Shown: in pieces, positions 9,708 through 15,549 of the stretch
Numbering within the stretch: the stretch's first letter is position 1
How the letters are laid out: every line of letters starts with the position of its first letter
Assembly: GCA_964507275.1 (NCBI GenBank)
Contig: CAZDPG010000001.1
Coordinates: 468,577-532,576 of the forward strand
Reading direction: 5' to 3'
DNA: 64,000 bases
Source of the DNA: an uncultured Candidatus Saccharibacteria bacterium
GTDB lineage: Bacteria; Patescibacteriota; Minisyncoccia; Phycocordibacterales; Phycocordibacteraceae
The notes under the pieces: generated by a model
Database searches by the model: none
What the model was told of the DNA's origin: nothing
Seen by the model: the letters and a program-made list of their open reading frames with translations, nothing else
Program-made: the position numbers and the translations under genes

Positions 9708-10709
9708 ATGGCTAAACAGTTGAAAGATAGAAGAGCCGTATTCCCCGCTGGTAAGCAAAAGTTCTTTTTAGAAAGCGTCGGACAAAAGATGACGATCGTG
9801 GACATGGCTCGCATCTGTCACTGCTCCGAACGCACGATTCGCGATTGGCGGCGAGAAAAGTTTTCTATGCCGCTTCCAGCGGTTCATACACTCTCAGCAC
9901 GAACACAGGTTTCAATTCCTAAAAACATTGAGATTAAAGATGCATACGCGCATATCGCAAAAGCAAGCAGGATGGGTGCTGCCGCAACCATTGAGAGATA
10001 TGGTCGCATTCCTCGCGATGAGCAGTACCGTAAAGAGCAGTGGCAAGCCTGGTGGGAATCAGAAGGTAAGTTCAAGAAGAATCCGATTCTTGAATCAAAA
10101 GAAATTGATAAACCAAGACGCAGCGTGGAGCTCGCAGAATTCATCGGAGTCATGATGGGCGATGGAGGCATCAGTACCTATCAGGCTACCATCACACTCC
10201 ATCACGAGGATGACCTGGAATACGCCGCCTTTGTAACAAAACTTATCAAAAGACTCTTTAAGATAACGCCGAGCGTTTATCATTTTCCGAAGAGATCTGT
10301 AAATAACATCGTCGTATCTCGGAAAGAATTGGTTGAGTATTTGTGTGCGCTTGGATTACCTATTGGAAACAAGGTGAAACAGCAACTCAATATCCCCGAA
10401 TGGATAAAGAGAAATCAGAAATTCTCGATTGCCTGCTTACGAGGACTTGTCGATACCGATGGGTGTATTTTCACCCATCGGTATCGTGCGAAAGGCATCT
10501 GGTACGCTTATAAGAAAATTTCTTTCACGAGCGCTTCAGAGCCATTGCGAAAGTCAGTCCACGCCATTCTGCAAGAACTAGGATTTCATCCACGAGTAGC
10601 TACTCACGATGTACGCCTCGATCGGATTGAGGATGTGAAGCGATATTTTGCAATCATCGGCAGCCATAATCCGAAACATTTGAGAAGATACGGAAATACG
10701 CTAGGATAG
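9708..10709 (+). CDS. LAGLIDADG homing-endonuclease-like protein with N-terminal HTH
   Basis: Two LAGLIDADG-type motifs, FIGVMMGDGGIS and LRGLVDTDGCIF. N-terminal 60 aa are HTH-like (MARICHCSERTIRDWRRE). Lower GC than neighbours. Confidence 0.7.
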   Translation: MAKQLKDRRAVFPAGKQKFFLESVGQKMTIVDMARICHCSERTIRDWRREKFSMPLPAVHTLSARTQVSIPKNIEIKDAYAHIAKASRMGAAATIERYGRIPRDEQYRKEQWQAWWESEGKFKKNPILESKEIDKPRRSVELAEFIGVMMGDGGISTYQATITLHHEDDLEYAAFVTKLIKRLFKITPSVYHFPKRSVNNIVVSRKELVEYLCALGLPIGNKVKQQLNIPEWIKRNQKFSIACLRGLVDTDGCIFTHRYRAKGIWYAYKKISFTSASEPLRKSVHAILQELGFHPRVATHDVRLDRIEDVKRYFAIIGSHNPKHLRRYGNTLG

Positions 10710-10716
10710 CCATACG

Positions 10717-10805
10717 GGATGGGTGACTGAGTGGCCGAAAGTACCACACTGCTAACGTGGCAGGGGCGTTAAAACCCCTCGAGGGTTCGAATCCCTCCCC
10801 ATCCG
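10717..10805 (+). tRNA. tRNA-Ser (anticodon GCU)
   Basis: Acceptor GGATGGG/CCCATCC, anticodon loop CUGCUAA, long variable arm, T-loop GGTTCGAATCC, discriminator G. CCA not encoded. Confidence 0.85.
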
Positions 10806-10814
10806 CACATCAAT

Positions 10815-10876: not shown

Positions 10877-11107
10877 CTACATCCCTGCTGGGTTGCATTC
10901 GCGGCAATCACCCTTGTGCGAGAACATGAGGGAAAGTGCTGAGAGACCGACAAGCAGGTAGACGAGGTTCTCGACTGCCGGCCATGAGCCGAGGACGAGG
11001 TTTACGACGTTCCAGTTGGCGCTCATGTATGTGCCGAGTGCGACGAGACCCCAGTTGAGTCCGCCGATAACGACGAGAGCGAACGAAATCCAATGCAATG
11101 ATTTCAT
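10877..11107 (-). CDS. DUF378-family small membrane protein
   Basis: Two TM helices with the GGLNWGLVAL motif typical of DUF378. Start taken at MKSLHW. Confidence 0.55.
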   Translation of the reverse strand: MKSLHWISFALVVIGGLNWGLVALGTYMSANWNVVNLVLGSWPAVENLVYLLVGLSALSLMFSHKGDCRECNPAGM

Positions 11108-11199
11108 GCTGGTGAGTATATTACTGCGGGGGATAATCCGCTTCCTATAGTATGACTCTCTTTGAGACCGCAAAAAGTCCTCCTGTGCAAAACTCGATA

Positions 11200-11601
11200 T
11201 TACTCAAACTTAATCTGGAAACCGTACATTCCCATAGAACAGAGCCCTTGCAGGGTGCCATTCGCCTTCTCCGCGGGAATCAGTATCTCTTCCGTGCCGG
11301 ATGAACCGAGGAATTTCTGATACGAGAGGCTCGGAATGACCAAGCTCGCCGAGCAATCGAACGTACCGCTCGTATTCACCCGCAGTACGGTCGGCATACC
11401 AGCCTTCGCCACCACGACGCGCGGCGAGTAGCCACCCTTCGCGGTGATATCGACGATCTGTTGACCATCGACGATGACTGCGGTCGGTATAGCCCCCTCG
11501 ACGTCAGCGTCCTCCGGTCTTGCAGAAACGAGCCAGAATGCCCACCCCACAAGAGCAATACTTATTGCGAACGAGATGAGGATTCGTATGTTCATACGCA
11601 T
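11200..11601 (-). CDS. Secreted beta-sandwich (cupredoxin-like) protein, possible metal-binding
   Basis: Signal peptide. C-terminal GxxQGLCSMGMYGF resembles the cupredoxin Cys/Met ligand region. Co-operonic with csoR and the HMA transporter. Confidence 0.4.
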   Translation of the reverse strand: MRMNIRILISFAISIALVGWAFWLVSARPEDADVEGAIPTAVIVDGQQIVDITAKGGYSPRVVVAKAGMPTVLRVNTSGTFDCSASLVIPSLSYQKFLGSSGTEEILIPAEKANGTLQGLCSMGMYGFQIKFE

Positions 11602-12620
11602 TAGAGATTAAAGAGTGGATTGATAATCCCTGCAGTAGCGAGCGCATTCGCAAGGTTCAGGAGTGCGAGCACGATGACGATGATGCCTGCGGTCTTGAAG
11701 AATATCCCCTTCCACGATTGGTGCGCGATATTAAGCGAGCCGAAGGAAAGAACGGCGAGCATCGGGAGCGTCCCGAGCGCGAAGACGAACATCGTGAGCG
11801 CGCCCTGCATGAAGCTTCCAGTCGAGAGCGCATAGAGCTGCATTGACTGGGTGAATCCGCATGGAAGGAAGAAGGTCCCGATACCAACCAAAAGCGGTGC
11901 GAGATAATGGTCGTGCGTGCTGCCCGCTACGACCCGCTTCGAGAAGCGTGCCGGCATCGTAAGCTGTAATCGCTTCGTGAAATGAAAGACATCGAGCAAG
12001 TTAATGCCGAGGATGAGCATCACGAGCGCGACGATGCCGGCGAGTATTGCATTCGCCGTGAGACCGAGATGTAGCGAGTTCCCTAGCAAGCCGACCAGGC
12101 CGCCGAGCAAGAAGAATCCGCCGATCCGTCCGATATGGAAGAACCCCACCGTCCGCCAGGTACCGCCCTCGCGCGCCGAGCTTGCCGAGAGCGAGAGCAC
12201 CAGTCCGCCAACGATAGCGAGACAAGAGGAAACGGAGGCGATGAGGCCGATGAAGAATGCCGTTCCGTAGCTCACGTCCGAAGACGTAATGAGGTTCGTC
12301 AGTCCGGCCTTCTGCAAGAAGATAAACGCCGCTATGAGCAGGAGCGCGATAGGGAGCGCGTAGGTGAAATCGCCCCATCCGGCATCGTGCGAGCCCTTCT
12401 CCGCCCTGATGACATACCCATGCTCGCTCACCAGCTTCGTGAGCTCTCCCGCGACTTCTTCCGATGAGCCGATGAAGTCCCCCTCCACGGACACTTGCTG
12501 CTTCCCGAACGACACTTCGGCAGTCGCCACTCGCGGATCATCTTTGATAGCCTGTTCTATCCGCAATGCGCACGATGCGCAGTGCATGCCTCGTATGTGA
12601 AAAGTATTCTTTGTTGTCAT
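11601..12620 (-). CDS. Heavy-metal-associated (HMA) domain fused to CcdA/DsbD-family transmembrane thiol-disulfide transporter
   Basis: N-terminal GMHCASCALRIE (GMxCxxC HMA motif). Six or more TM helices, with single Cys in SCLAIV and FLPCGF, typical of DsbD/CcdA. Confidence 0.75.
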   Translation of the reverse strand: MTTKNTFHIRGMHCASCALRIEQAIKDDPRVATAEVSFGKQQVSVEGDFIGSSEEVAGELTKLVSEHGYVIRAEKGSHDAGWGDFTYALPIALLLIAAFIFLQKAGLTNLITSSDVSYGTAFFIGLIASVSSCLAIVGGLVLSLSASSAREGGTWRTVGFFHIGRIGGFFLLGGLVGLLGNSLHLGLTANAILAGIVALVMLILGINLLDVFHFTKRLQLTMPARFSKRVVAGSTHDHYLAPLLVGIGTFFLPCGFTQSMQLYALSTGSFMQGALTMFVFALGTLPMLAVLSFGSLNIAHQSWKGIFFKTAGIIVIVLALLNLANALATAGIINPLFNL

Positions 12621-12622
12621 AG

Positions 12623-12904
12623 CTATTTCCGCTTGAGCTTATACACCTTCAAGACCTCCTGAACCGCTTTCCCTGTCTGACCGGAAGTCATTTGTTTGTG
12701 CACACAACTATTTAAGTGATTCTCGAGGAGGATATCCTCCACGGTCGAGAGTCCCTGCTTAATGGCTGAGGTCTGCGCGATAATGTCGATACAATATGTG
12801 CTCTTCTCAAGCATTGAGACAAGTCCGCGCACTTGCCCTTCGATTATTTTCAATCGCCGCACCAACTTCGACCTCTCCGTATCGGACATATGCGTCATGT
12901 GCAC
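12623..12904 (-). CDS. csoR: CsoR/RcnR-family metal-sensing transcriptional repressor
   Basis: 93 aa, all-helical. The conserved CsoR Cys/His ligand signature is present. Confidence 0.8.
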   Translation of the reverse strand: MHMTHMSDTERSKLVRRLKIIEGQVRGLVSMLEKSTYCIDIIAQTSAIKQGLSTVEDILLENHLNSCVHKQMTSGQTGKAVQEVLKVYKLKRK

Positions 12905-12928: not shown

Positions 12929-13906
12929 TTATTCAAGCTCTGTTGGTAATTCGCTGATGCGTGCTGAAAGCTTCCATGCATTCCCATGCCGGAGCATCCC
13001 CCGATACGACGCAACCGTGGCTTCGCTCGGATTACCACTCATCGCCCGCAGCATCCTCCTCTTCGTACTCGTGCGGAGTACGCGATGGTCAGGAAAATGC
13101 ACCCAGCCGAGAAAATCGATGCCTGAAGTGAGCGTTGCTATGGAGACTTTTTTTGGATGTAGCTCAAGCTTTAGTTTCTCGTGCAAGAAGTCTCGGATGC
13201 GTGGCAGAAGCGAGACAAGCTGATCGCGGTCACGAGAGAGGAAGACGAAATCATCAGCATAGCGGATGTAGTGTCTCGCTTTCAGTGTGTGTTTCGCAAA
13301 TTGATCGAACTCGTTCATATAAATGTTCACGAGGAGCTGGCTTGTGAGGTTACCGAGCGGGAGACCCTTCCCTGTTTCTGTGCTTGAGAAGCTTCCGATG
13401 ATGTTCTTCATGAGCGAGAGAGTACGTTCGTCGGGAATATATGAGTGCAGTATCTCCATGAGTGTTTGCTGGTCAATGGAAGCGAAGAACTTCCGTATGT
13501 CGCATTTGAGTACCCAGCAGATGCGTGTATCGTTCTGCGATACTTTCTGAGCACATGATCGGAATTGGTTCATCGCCCGGTGCGTACCCTTCCCCACGCG
13601 ACAGGAATACGAGTCAGCGACAAAGGTACGGTCGAAGAATGGGTAGAGCTGGCGATAGAGGGCATGGTGCACAAGCCGGTCGCGGACTGAGGCCTTGTGA
13701 ATGTCGCGCGGCTTCGGGTCCGCAATCTTGAAGTGGTGGTAGCCGCCGTGCTGATAGGTGCCAATGGCGAGGTCGTGATGGAGCACGAGGATGTGGTGCA
13801 TTAGATGTCGACCGAACTCCTGCACGTCAGCACGCTTCTTCTTTCCTCTTACGAATTCCTGCCACGCATCGAGAAGATTTTCGATTGAGATGATATCCTC
13901 ATACAC
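12929..13906 (-). CDS. Diversity-generating retroelement reverse transcriptase
   Basis: 325 aa. Closely parallels Bordetella phage bRT: IENLLDAW, PKPR...DRLVHHAL, GLPLGNLTSQLL, RYADDFVFL (YxDD), GIDFLGW. Starts at a GTG codon. Confidence 0.92.
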   Translation of the reverse strand: MYEDIISIENLLDAWQEFVRGKKKRADVQEFGRHLMHHILVLHHDLAIGTYQHGGYHHFKIADPKPRDIHKASVRDRLVHHALYRQLYPFFDRTFVADSYSCRVGKGTHRAMNQFRSCAQKVSQNDTRICWVLKCDIRKFFASIDQQTLMEILHSYIPDERTLSLMKNIIGSFSSTETGKGLPLGNLTSQLLVNIYMNEFDQFAKHTLKARHYIRYADDFVFLSRDRDQLVSLLPRIRDFLHEKLKLELHPKKVSIATLTSGIDFLGWVHFPDHRVLRTSTKRRMLRAMSGNPSEATVASYRGMLRHGNAWKLSARISELPTELE

Positions 13907-13958
13907 AAGACTCCATGAGCAACCCCCCCCCCGACAGTTTCTTCCGGTACTTGAGAGA

Positions 13959-14306
13959 TTGAAAAGTGCATACCTGCTTTGGTATGGATATTATCAGACA
14001 CTCCCTAAGACGCATCGCCACACACTCGGCGGAAGAGTGGACACGCTTTTTGTCGAAGTAATCGAGGCGATAGCTTCAGCGACATTTCTCTCCCGTAGCG
14101 AGAAGCAGCCCTGGGTGCGGCTCGCTATCCGAAAACTCGACACGCTGAAAGTACTGCTTCTCGTGCTCTGGGAGACCAAATCTCTTGAGACGAAAAAATA
14201 CGCCGCACTTTCGCTCCCGCTTGAAGAGGTTGGCAAAATGCTCGGCGGATGGAATGGACAGCTCACGAAGCAAAACTCAACCCCGCTAGTGCGGGGCGAA
14301 GAGTGA
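13959..14306 (+). CDS. avd: DGR accessory variability determinant (Avd, four-helix-bundle)
   Basis: C-terminal LEEVGKMLGGW matches the bAvd AEVGRILGSW motif, and LPKTHRHTLGGR matches IPRKHGVAR. Opposite strand to the RT. Start ambiguous: TTG at 13959, or ATG at 13915, which is out of frame unless the C10 tract 13923-13932 becomes C11. Confidence 0.7.
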   Translation: MKSAYLLWYGYYQTLPKTHRHTLGGRVDTLFVEVIEAIASATFLSRSEKQPWVRLAIRKLDTLKVLLLVLWETKSLETKKYAALSLPLEEVGKMLGGWNGQLTKQNSTPLVRGEE

Positions 14307-14312
14307 AGATAG

Positions 14313-14421
14313 TTGCGGGCAGGGACACCGGACAGGAACCAGTTGTCGTTCCAATCGTTGTCGTTGCGATTGCAGTTCACGTTCCGATCGTCATTCCAAC
14401 GATTGAACGTCAGGTAGCAAT
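14313..14421 (-). repeat. DGR template repeat (TR), 109 bp
   Basis: 97 of 109 identical to the 3' end of the target gene. All 12 mismatches fall at TR adenines on the coding (minus) strand. Rich in AAY codons. Confidence 0.9.
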
Positions 14422-14682
14422 GTGTGGAGCGCCATCCGTATCACCACCCTTCGAGTACTCTCAGGGCTGTCTGCGGGGGTTCCGCGGTCTTCGGCATCAT
14501 AATGCCATAGCACTCCACACCAAGTATCTTCATTTTTTGAAGTGTCTGCGTGCATCCTCCATGTGCAACCGTAATCACAAATGTTCTCAACGCACGGATA
14601 CTGGGTTCAGCAGGAAGAAACCATGATCGCCCCCATATTCGCCTACTACCGTGTGTATACTATCAAATACAAAATGGGCCCG

Positions 14683-14710
14683 CATTCCGGAGAATGCGGG
14701 CCCAAGGACA
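14683..14710. promoter_or_regulatory. GC-rich hairpin downstream of VR
   Basis: GGGCCCGCATTC-TCCG-GAATGCGGGCCC, a 12-bp GC-rich stem with 4-nt loop. Lies about 50 bp 3' of the VR end in coding direction. Confidence 0.5.
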
Positions 14711-14756: not shown

Positions 14757-15353
14757 CTACTTGCGGGCAGGGACACCGGACAGGAACCAGTAGTCGAGCC
14801 AAGCGCTGTCGTAGCGATTGCAGCCCACGCCCCGACCGTCACTCCAACGATTGAACGTCAGGTAGCAATTGTCGCCCCACTGCGAGCCATTCGGGTACTT
14901 GTCGGCGAAAGCGGGATCCTCTTCGTTCACTGCGGCTGTCGCGCGCGGGTCAGGCACGAGGCCATACTGCGCGAGAAATGCCGGAACCTCGGCCACGGGC
15001 ACAAGGCGCTTGGTCGGAACGAAGTACACATCGACTTCGTCACCCTCACCTTGCGGCATCGTGGCGACCACATCGTCGTTCAGGTACTTGTTGCGGCCGG
15101 TCTTATCGATGACTTCCTGCGGAGTGCGAGTGCGATCGACGCGGACGCGGCGGATGATGATATCGCTCTGTGCTTCGACATACTTGCGGAGAGTCGCAAC
15201 CATCTCATCGATAGCCGGATTCCCGGGCATCTCGAGGACTTTCTGCACACTTTCCGACAGAAGACCGGACTCGCGAAGTTTCGTTGCAAGCCGGTCATTG
15301 ATCTGGCCAATCTGGCCGTTGGTGATGGACTGGGTCCTGACATTGGTTGTCAT
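14757..15353 (-). CDS. DGR variable (target) protein with C-terminal VR
   Basis: 198 aa. C-terminal 36 codons are the VR (CYLTFNRWSDGRGVGCNRYDSAWLDYWFLSGVPARK). No signal peptide. N-terminal region has no recognisable family. Confidence 0.85.
   Translation of the reverse strand: MTTNVRTQSITNGQIGQINDRLATKLRESGLLSESVQKVLEMPGNPAIDEMVATLRKYVEAQSDIIIRRVRVDRTRTPQEVIDKTGRNKYLNDDVVATMPQGEGDEVDVYFVPTKRLVPVAEVPAFLAQYGLVPDPRATAAVNEEDPAFADKYPNGSQWGDNCYLTFNRWSDGRGVGCNRYDSAWLDYWFLSGVPARK
14761..14869 (-). repeat. DGR variable repeat (VR), 109 bp
   Basis: Aligned to TR 14313-14421. Ends 2 codons before the stop, with a GC-rich 3' end GTCCCTGCCCGCAA shared with TR (IMH-like). Confidence 0.9.
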
Positions 15354-15549
15354 TACGTTATCCTCTCAAGGAAAGCTGTACGACTCGACCCAGACGGGTT
15401 TTCGCCACAGCAGAAAAAAGCTTAGCGAATATGCCGTTTTCTGCTGGGGCGAACACTGGTCTCAAAGAGCGGAATAACTAGGACATAGTATACACGATAT
15501 ATGTATCCTGTCAATAGCCTTGGTACTACATCAGGAGATGCCGTGCCCA

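Follow-up and report, generated by a model that had tools for sequence, protein, structure and literature searches.

A length-variable repeat at the avd-reverse transcriptase overlap is a candidate phase switch for diversity-generating retroelements of Patescibacteria

The 64,000-nucleotide stretch of DNA examined here (the window; positions 468,577 to 532,576 of contig CAZDPG010000001.1, from an uncultured Candidatus Saccharibacteria bacterium) carries a complete diversity-generating retroelement (DGR), arranged as target gene with its variable repeat (VR), template repeat (TR), avd on the opposite strand, and reverse transcriptase (RT). At the 5' end of avd is a run of ten cytosines (C10). 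Comparison with related loci makes it very probable that this tract is a selected hypermutable element within the avd coding sequence. With less assurance, and from the arrangement of the open reading frames (ORFs), we also favor the view that it is a slipped-strand contingency tract in a head-to-head overlap of avd and RT that would gate both proteins together. An original prediction, made from the window sequence without database searches, had proposed a slipped-strand switch on Avd. That core idea gains support from at least 133 repeat-bearing lineages, from differences in tract length between strains, and from decayed tracts that are in frame. Other parts of the interpretation, namely a possible assembly error, an unusual divergence of the two genes, a TTG start for avd and a GTG start for RT, did not stand and are dealt with where the evidence appears.

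Results

A repeat at one site in avd is conserved across lineages

The tract is preceded by A and followed by G in the window sequence. It is the only homopolymer of 8 nt or more in the 64 kb, where the next C run is a single C6, and so lies far beyond chance. Elsewhere in 793 kb of related loci one G/C run of at least 8 nt was found. On the avd strand, the ATG at 13915-13917 is followed by AGCAA and then by C10. Its frame reads MSNPPPDSFFRYLRD up to a stop codon and is +1 relative to the Avd frame (HEQPPPRQFLPVLERLK...). The minus-strand GTG lies at 13906-13904 and a TTG at 13959-13961. All of these positions, and the displacement of ATG 13915 from the Avd frame by one nucleotide, are as originally predicted. 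The prediction also stated that C11 or C8 would join this ATG to the Avd body; simulation of tract lengths C7-C14 in the window sequence agrees and adds C14.

Of roughly 900 relatives detected, the site was compared among 160 related loci from Patescibacteria (Kaiserbacteria, Paceibacteria and others), taken from GTDB genomes and JGI metagenomes, whose Avd proteins are 65-92% identical to that of the window. Loci were aligned on the conserved LPVLE codons and dereplicated at 97% flank identity, and 162 sequences, the window included, were scored at the tract site. Some relatives are nanopore metagenome-assembled genomes (MAGs), in which homopolymer lengths are unreliable. 152/162 sequences have a repeat at the tract position and 10/162 have none. 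Poly-C of C6-C13, with C10 as the mode, is present in 136/162 sequences, and (CAAC)n, (CAAT)n, (GCCA)n, (ACGA)n, (CA)n or (GA)n in 16/162. The repeat units of the relatives are 1, 2 or 4 nt long, and none is divisible by 3. Dereplication left 133 repeat-bearing lineages, 120 with poly-C and 13 with other units. A comparison of orthologs had been proposed as a check on the switch, with orthologs that lack the tract speaking against it; the outcome favors the switch.

Tract length differs between genomes that are otherwise nearly the same. L006 (C10) and L104 (C9) share 600/600 flank bases, L087 (C10) and L092 (C11) have 2 flank mismatches, and the flanks of L033 (C9) and L046 (C8) are 97% identical. 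The tetranucleotide repeats at the site, which span 14-59 nt, also vary: the (CAAC) repeat is 14 nt long in L079 and 51 nt long in L148, at a flank identity of 96%. The unit itself turns over, with swaps among CAAC, CAAT and ACGA at about 90% flank identity. In the pair L133/L134, whose flanks are 97.8% identical, both repeat blocks differ. Compound or dinucleotide repeats such as (CA)n(GA)n and (GA)n occur at the site in L133/L134, L053 and L051, and (CAAT)n was found in L059 and L159. Judged from the alignments, the trait common to the tracts across lineages is an unstable length and reading frame, not a sequence.

Sequencing or assembly artefact was considered at this point, since the original prediction held that C10 could equally be an assembly error. 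Homopolymers are error-prone, and the nanopore MAGs among the relatives add to this concern. Yet at least 133 lineages, drawn from numerous projects and sequencing platforms, share a repeat at this position, C10 is identical in 16 independent contigs of the window's strain, and tetranucleotide versions are found at the very same site. These comparative data exclude the earlier suggestion, and we give an artefact practically no credence.

Translation of avd passes through the tract

The codons 3' of the tract encode (F/L/I)-L-P-V-L-E, with conserved amino acids and free synonymous variation. They are separated from the tract by 2-12 nt in most loci and by about 22 nt in a few, and no start codon was found between the tract and the LPVLE codons in the aligned related loci. 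Because the LPVLE codons are conserved with synonymous changes, translation of avd must start upstream, and the tract must be translated. The site thus has one defining feature of a simple-sequence repeat (SSR) contingency locus: a hypermutable repeat, with a unit that is not a multiple of 3, inside the reading frame downstream of a start.

The TTG at 13959 was rejected as the avd start, as it would remove the conserved LPVLERL. The original prediction had taken this TTG to be obligatory at C10, having overlooked the in-frame ATG at 13890. It had further described the TTG as having a poor Shine-Dalgarno (SD) sequence, which carries no weight. An SD motif (GGAG, GAGG or AGGA within 20 nt upstream) precedes only 5/35 window ORFs of at least 250 aa, and SD arguments are uninformative when the motif is this rare. 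Several long ORFs of the window have TATAAT-like hexamers directly upstream of the start, which suggests short-leader or leaderless mRNAs.

Two ATG codons are candidates for the avd start, each in a different tract phase (Table 1). ATG 13915 is invariant in the window's clade, where its flanks vary, and at C11 it would open a protein of 130 aa, MSNPPPRQFLPVLERLK.... ATG 13890 lies opposite the RT 'DII' codons, in antisense. Some relatives keep its frame open, and in others (e.g. L084, L087, L092) a stop closes it. The protein predicted from it, P0001, is an existing public gene call found on 16 contigs from groundwater metagenomes. The N-termini of Avd homologs are of two kinds, MI.SYERLHEQPP... 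and MSNPP..., and these appear to correspond to the window's two ATGs read in different phases of the tract.

Loci with decayed tracts keep avd open. An upstream ATG is in frame in 10/10 decayed-tract loci (9/9 lineages), which are L024/L115 (CCGCCGCCG), L048/L126, L052, L081, L054, L040, L123 and L094. Among repeat-bearing lineages, by comparison, 49/133 have any in-frame ATG (Fisher p = 2e-4), and the nearest ATG is in frame in 35/131. Consensus phases are 35 in frame, 48 at -1 and 48 at +1; the excess of in-frame consensus states expected if ON were favored was not found in these lineages. Random phase with the repeat and an always open frame without it is the pattern to be expected if the site is a contingency locus with common OFF states. 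For the (CAAC)n lineages, translation from a proximal GTG/ATG-GCA was also considered and was rejected, as the decayed loci L052, L081 and L054 are in frame with an ATG about 32 nt upstream.

These phases bear on another explanation, in which RNA-polymerase slippage or ribosomal frameshifting gives some in-frame product at any tract length, so that the phase of the DNA tunes the level of expression or is irrelevant. The near-uniform consensus phases across lineages are in line with it, and so is the finding that decayed tracts, on which slippage is impossible, are always in frame. It leaves unexplained, however, why the repeat is maintained and why it is replaced by tetranucleotide repeats of 14-59 nt, and length differences at the DNA level are seen directly between near-identical strains. 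To our knowledge, transcriptional slippage is not known for such tetranucleotide repeats and is weak on G/C runs. We consider this explanation improbable.

Since the tract sits between two divergent genes, it could instead be a non-coding regulatory spacer that sets a promoter (-35/-10) or a 5' untranslated region, like the (TA)n of hifA/hifB in Haemophilus influenzae. Poly-C/G promoter tracts are known in other systems. A promoter scan gave no convincing sigma-70 site near or at the tract. The coding evidence points the other way. The tract runs up against conserved avd codons without an intervening start codon, repeats reach 59 nt and are then too long for a promoter spacer, the units are never divisible by 3, and decayed tracts keep the reading frame. 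A divergent-promoter SSR switch of the hifA/hifB type was rejected for the same repeat lengths, for the lack of a promoter-like site, and because the tract lies inside both candidate ORFs. A spacer is therefore a most improbable role for the tract, and a translated repeat within avd is preferred.

RT of the window's clade probably starts beyond the tract

The original prediction placed the RT start at the GTG at 13906. The coordinates were correct, but the codon is not conserved: relatives have GCA, ATC, AGG or TCA in its place. An exact look-up of the 325-aa RT that starts at this GTG returned no record, and public gene calls shorten RT to 290 aa (P0121) at an internal Met. No ATG, GTG or TTG occurs between RT YEDIIS and the tract in 44/147 loci, among them most members of the window's clade; in those 44 loci the RT frame continues without a stop across the tract, which is read as a Gly run. 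Past the tract, opposite Avd codons Ala27-Tyr28 (GCA TAY), there is an ATG on the minus strand at 13971-13969; in relatives the minus-strand ATG lies 35-40 nt beyond the tract. At C11 RT from ATG 13971 would have 347 aa (MHFSISQVPEETVGGGGCSWSLVYEDIISIENLL...), with the tract read as a Gly run. These observations suggest that RT of the window's clade probably starts at this ATG, not at the GTG, so that the switch would act on RT as well.

Further evidence comes from the relation between the two starts. In 33/35 lineages without an RT start of their own, the nearest avd ATG and the nearest minus-strand ATG need an equal change in length. This co-phase relation spans several ATG configurations, with offsets of 28, 24, 15 and 36 nt from the LPVLE codon. 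Among lineages without their own RT start, 18/26 Ala cases at Avd codon 27 are GCA, as against 24% GCA at the remaining Ala codons of these genes (p = 1e-6, kinship ignored). Where RT has an ATG of its own, GCA accounts for 10/37 cases at codon 27. Where residue 27 is Ser the codon is mostly TCA, by which the antisense ATG is kept too. Database RTs of in-phase relatives begin MHTSISQEQAEVSGGGGCSWSL... (P0124, P0133, P0188) and follow the pattern MH.SISQ...GGGGCSWSL; P0124 starts with MHTSISQEQAEVSGGGGCSWSLSYESIIS, and P0133, P0188, P0170 and P0173 are similar. In L166 the tract has decayed to the non-slippery AACCCGCCAACG, and both genes are in frame, avd reading MSNPPTKLLPVLERLK / MSNPPTKLLPVLE and RT reading MHSSISQAPVEVSLAGCSWSF / MHSSISQAPVEVSLAGCSWSFEYESIIS. 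L164 (C8) likewise has the two genes in frame together, even with an in-frame insertion in its RT leader.

A narrower alternative is that the tract switches avd only. RT would then start on its own side of the tract, at GTG 13906 in the window and at a non-canonical codon in relatives, and the antisense ATG, the Gly extension and the co-phasing would be by-products of Avd coding constraints. Such a switch is in keeping with the 103/147 loci, most of the more distant lineages, that have an RT start candidate before the tract, where only avd could be gated. The window itself has GTG 13906, preceded by GGAG. The sequence of the RT extension is dictated by the conserved Avd helix encoded opposite it, and conservation of the extension is therefore uninformative. 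But it does not account for the 44 loci without ATG, GTG or TTG before YEDIIS, for the GCA bias at codon 27, which makes the antisense ATG specifically in lineages without their own RT start, or for co-phase in 33/35 lineages. In the alignment L005 has a 6-nt in-frame insertion in the supposed 'intergenic' stretch, and in L166 the RT extension is still in frame although the tract has decayed. On balance restriction of the switch to avd seems unlikely, and joint gating of avd and RT in the window's clade is the reading carried forward.

A second antisense frame (frame B, Table 1) fuses to RT at C9 or C12, giving MRLRECLIISIPKQVCTFQSLKYRKKLSGGGCSWSL... (361 aa). Its ATG is antisense to the conserved Avd His42 codon, and the frame is open through the Avd helix-1 region. 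Long forms called in relatives (P0130, P0134, P0138, P0143) are homologous to this fusion. Public calls in L001-L003 and L164-L169 are inconsistent at the tract. Where avd is called long, an internal Met is taken as the RT start and leaves 290 aa; where RT is called through the Gly run, avd is cut to 87-89 aa. Gene callers disallow head-to-head overlap.

Phase states and the window's strain

The simulated tract lengths fall into three classes. At C8, C11 and C14, avd is read from ATG 13915 (129-131 aa) and RT from the minus-strand ATG 13971 (346-348 aa, MHFSISQVPEETVGGGGCSWSLVYEDIIS...). At C7, C10 and C13, avd is open only from the distal ATG 13890 and RT only from GTG 13906. At C9 and C12 there is no ATG-initiated avd, and RT is fused to the longer antisense frame from the minus-strand ATG 14015. 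The assembled C10 is one nucleotide from the double-ON phase and out of phase for both conserved starts. This geometry, together with the decayed tracts that are in frame, suggests that tract length would alter expression. Each gene is ATG-initiated in two of the three phases if the distal avd ATG and frame B are counted, which makes a three-state system possible.

All 16 assembled contigs of the window's strain have C10 and an identical VR. Exact look-up among 15 billion sequences found the C10 form only and none of the proteins expected of the C7, C8, C9, C11, C13 and C14 versions. The tract-independent RT fragment P0121 is on the same 16 contigs as the C10 form. No variation in the tract was found between these assemblies; length polymorphism between near-identical genomes is present in the relatives. 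L001-L003 are identical to the window in DNA, so that comparison of their VRs is uninformative.

Several of these observations weigh against a switch that gates both proteins. In the window's strain, 16/16 contigs with C10 and an identical VR fit either a stable state or masking of variants by the consensus, and they are consistent with a quiescent element. The window may not be OFF, since C10 still leaves ATG 13890 and GTG 13906. Clade member L094, which has a short C5 tract, is fixed in the same phase as the C10 of the window. Near-uniform phases (35/48/48) are also expected if phase is irrelevant. Some members have ATG-initiated ORFs in 2/3 phases in each direction, and a division into ON and OFF may be oversimplified. 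Only about 4-5 independent configurations underlie the co-phase statistic, and the codon-27 test ignores kinship. Some relatives are nanopore assemblies with unreliable homopolymer lengths.

The DGR cassette and neighboring genes

TR and VR (112 nt each) differ by 13 mismatches, 12 of them at TR adenines, and VR ends at the stop codon of the target ORF. The cassette therefore has the adenine-specific TR/VR pair at the 3' end of a target ORF that marks a DGR. The avd-strand ORF matches bAvd (PF22296) with 42.5 bits, above the curated cut-off of 40, and E 9.9e-11, and lies beside RT and TR. Avd homologs number 1580, with PF22296 in all among the matches listed. The adjacent opposite-strand ORF matches RT (PF00078, E 1.2e-25) and is assigned by sequence to the DGR-type RTs. 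Its conserved N-terminus, IISIENLL...GKKKR, is common to thousands of homologs that adjoin Avd genes.

The original prediction regarded an avd divergent from RT as unusual. Architecture B3, TR-(avd)-RT, makes up 90% of the DGRs of the candidate phyla radiation (CPR) (Wu et al. 2018, PMC5758913), and divergence is the rule there. The window cassette is of this type, with avd between TR and RT on the opposite strand; gene order and inverted avd are exactly those of B3. RT is divergent from avd in 157/157 relatives with an RT match. The accessible part of the survey text on B3 (Wu et al. 2018, PMC5758913) makes no mention of a homopolymer or of antisense.

On the minus strand a hairpin follows TR and another follows VR (Table 1). 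The one at 14675-14704 could be a terminator or a DGR-type hairpin/cruciform element, such as DGRs carry after VR. The one at 14297-14280 might terminate the TR RNA and so keep it from extending antisense into avd. This smaller hairpin overlaps the Avd C-terminal codons (..NSTPLVRGEE), and the tail NSTPL.RGEK recurs in many homologs; it is a possible TR-RNA 3' end, an avd terminator, or both. Folding of the TR region gave no significant stability (z = -1.7). The contig of L003 (Logan SRR5855240) stops inside TR, an assembly break at the TR/VR repeat that is typical of DGRs.

Directly downstream of RT, at 10877-12904 on the minus strand, the gene calls of L001 contain a putative copper-handling cluster with a CsoR-like repressor (PF02583), a membrane protein with HMA and DsbD_2 domains, and a cupredoxin-domain protein. 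Farther on, in the region 9708-10806, a 333-aa ORF with helix-turn-helix and LAGLIDADG_3 domains (homing-endonuclease-like) ends 8 nt before tRNA-Ser(GCT), which at 10717-10806 is the sole Rfam match in the window. Upstream of the target gene the same gene calls contain an ABC/FtsX exporter with a periplasmic adaptor-like protein.

Table 1. Features of the DGR cassette in the window (positions are those of the window).
Feature	Coordinates	Strand	Details
C10 SSR, candidate slipped-strand switch	13923..13932		poly-C on avd strand, poly-G on RT strand
avd ORF from proximal ATG	13915..14306	+	in frame only at C8, C11, C14; stop TGA 14304-14306
avd ORF as assembled (C10) from distal ATG	13890..14306	+	138 aa, MISSYTRLHEQPPPRQFLPVLE... 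(P0001)
RT ORF as assembled	12929..13906	-	from GTG 13906, 325 aa; start independent of tract
RT ORF from minus-strand ATG 13971-13969	12929..13971	-	in frame only at C8, C11, C14
Second antisense frame (frame B)	13899..14021	-	minus-strand ATG 14015-14013, GTG 14021-14019
Hairpin	14280..14297	-	7-bp GC-rich stem, T-rich tail; directly 3' of TR, inside avd 3' end
TR	14310..14421	-	112-nt repeat of VR
Hairpin	14675..14704	-	13-bp perfect GC-rich stem, then T run; ~50 nt downstream of VR
DGR target gene	14757..15353	-	198 aa; VR 14758-14869 at 3' end
Promoter-like site	15487..15514	-	TTGACA-16-TATACT; upstream of target gene; consensus match only

Discussion

We propose that replication slippage would change the length of a tract that lies within two genes. 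In avd the tract would be part of the 5' coding end that starts at ATG 13915, where it would encode Pro-Pro-Pro before the first Avd helix (LPVLE...). In the window's clade it would also be part of the 5' coding end of RT, as Gly-Gly-Gly before CSWSL-YEDIIS, and an RT leader read across it would carry ...SISQVPEETVGGGGCSWSL.... The two ORFs would overlap head-to-head by ~57 nt around the repeat. A single length class (C8, C11, C14) would open both, and the other two classes would break both conserved starts. Synthesis of cDNA requires Avd as well as RT, so the element would alternate at random between ON and OFF. Use of the start codons named here, switching within populations and an effect on homing are predictions of this proposal.

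Known SSR contingency loci include the tetranucleotide repeats of H. influenzae lic1/lgtC, the poly-G/C tracts of Neisseria and Campylobacter, and the poly-C frameshift of Bordetella pertussis bvgS. The avd tract resembles them in having a unit that is not a multiple of 3 in a 5' coding region, a length that sets the frame, and, among the relatives, polymorphism between close strains; the (CAAT)n of two relatives is the lic1 unit itself. It differs in that the gated genes are the protein machinery of a DGR and not surface or restriction-modification genes, that the hosts are free-living or episymbiotic Patescibacteria and not pathogens, and that one tract appears to serve two ORFs on opposite strands. 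Co-control of two divergent genes by a single repeat tract is also a feature of the H. influenzae hifA/hifB fimbrial switch, said to have been described by van Ham et al. in 1993 (a reference listed in PMC11868660), in which (TA)n reportedly lies in a combined divergent promoter. That switch is transcriptional and acts through promoter spacing, whereas the tract described here lies in both reading frames and would act by frameshift.

Among DGRs, that of Bordetella phage BPP-1 shares with the window a homologous Avd (PF22296) and RT, adenine-specific differences between TR and VR, and a hairpin after VR. Its genes are co-oriented in the order avd-TR-brt. The avd of the window is encoded on the other strand and overlaps the 5' end of RT, with the hypermutable tract in the overlap, and TR is separated from RT by the whole of the antisense avd. 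A full-text literature search, which did not extend to Paul et al. 2017 (Nat Microbiol), turned up no work that connects DGRs or Avd with repeats or phase variation. Phase variation by SSRs is well known, and so are DGRs; a single tract inside two overlapping divergent ORFs differs from the closest analogues.

Little has been established about how DGRs are controlled in natural settings. Mutagenic homing carries a cost, and in metagenomes many DGRs appear inactive. If a conserved slipped-strand switch acts on Avd, and in one clade on RT as well, it would be a simple form of control that is both heritable and reversible, with just part of the population diversifying its surface or binding protein at a given moment. 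Whether a hypermutable repeat has been selected across this DGR clade of Patescibacteria as a master stochastic switch, with one slip toggling both proteins in the window's clade, we judge to be evenly poised. If true, such a switch would account for the out-of-phase state of about two thirds of consensus genomes and for the apparently lower activity of this DGR clade in metagenomes. The DGRs of Patescibacteria (clade 2) have lower-than-average activity (Roux et al. 2021, PMC8144416), in keeping with OFF phases that would be frequent.

Systematic errors affect the public gene calls for these cassettes, in which RT is cut to 290 aa or avd to about 88 aa. The N-termini depend on the phase of the tract, and pipelines that mine DGRs would gain from modeling it. 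Metagenomic reads that already exist allow a test of the switch hypothesis. If borne out, it would take contingency loci beyond pathogens and into the CPR, and would add a case in which one repeat gates two overlapping divergent ORFs.

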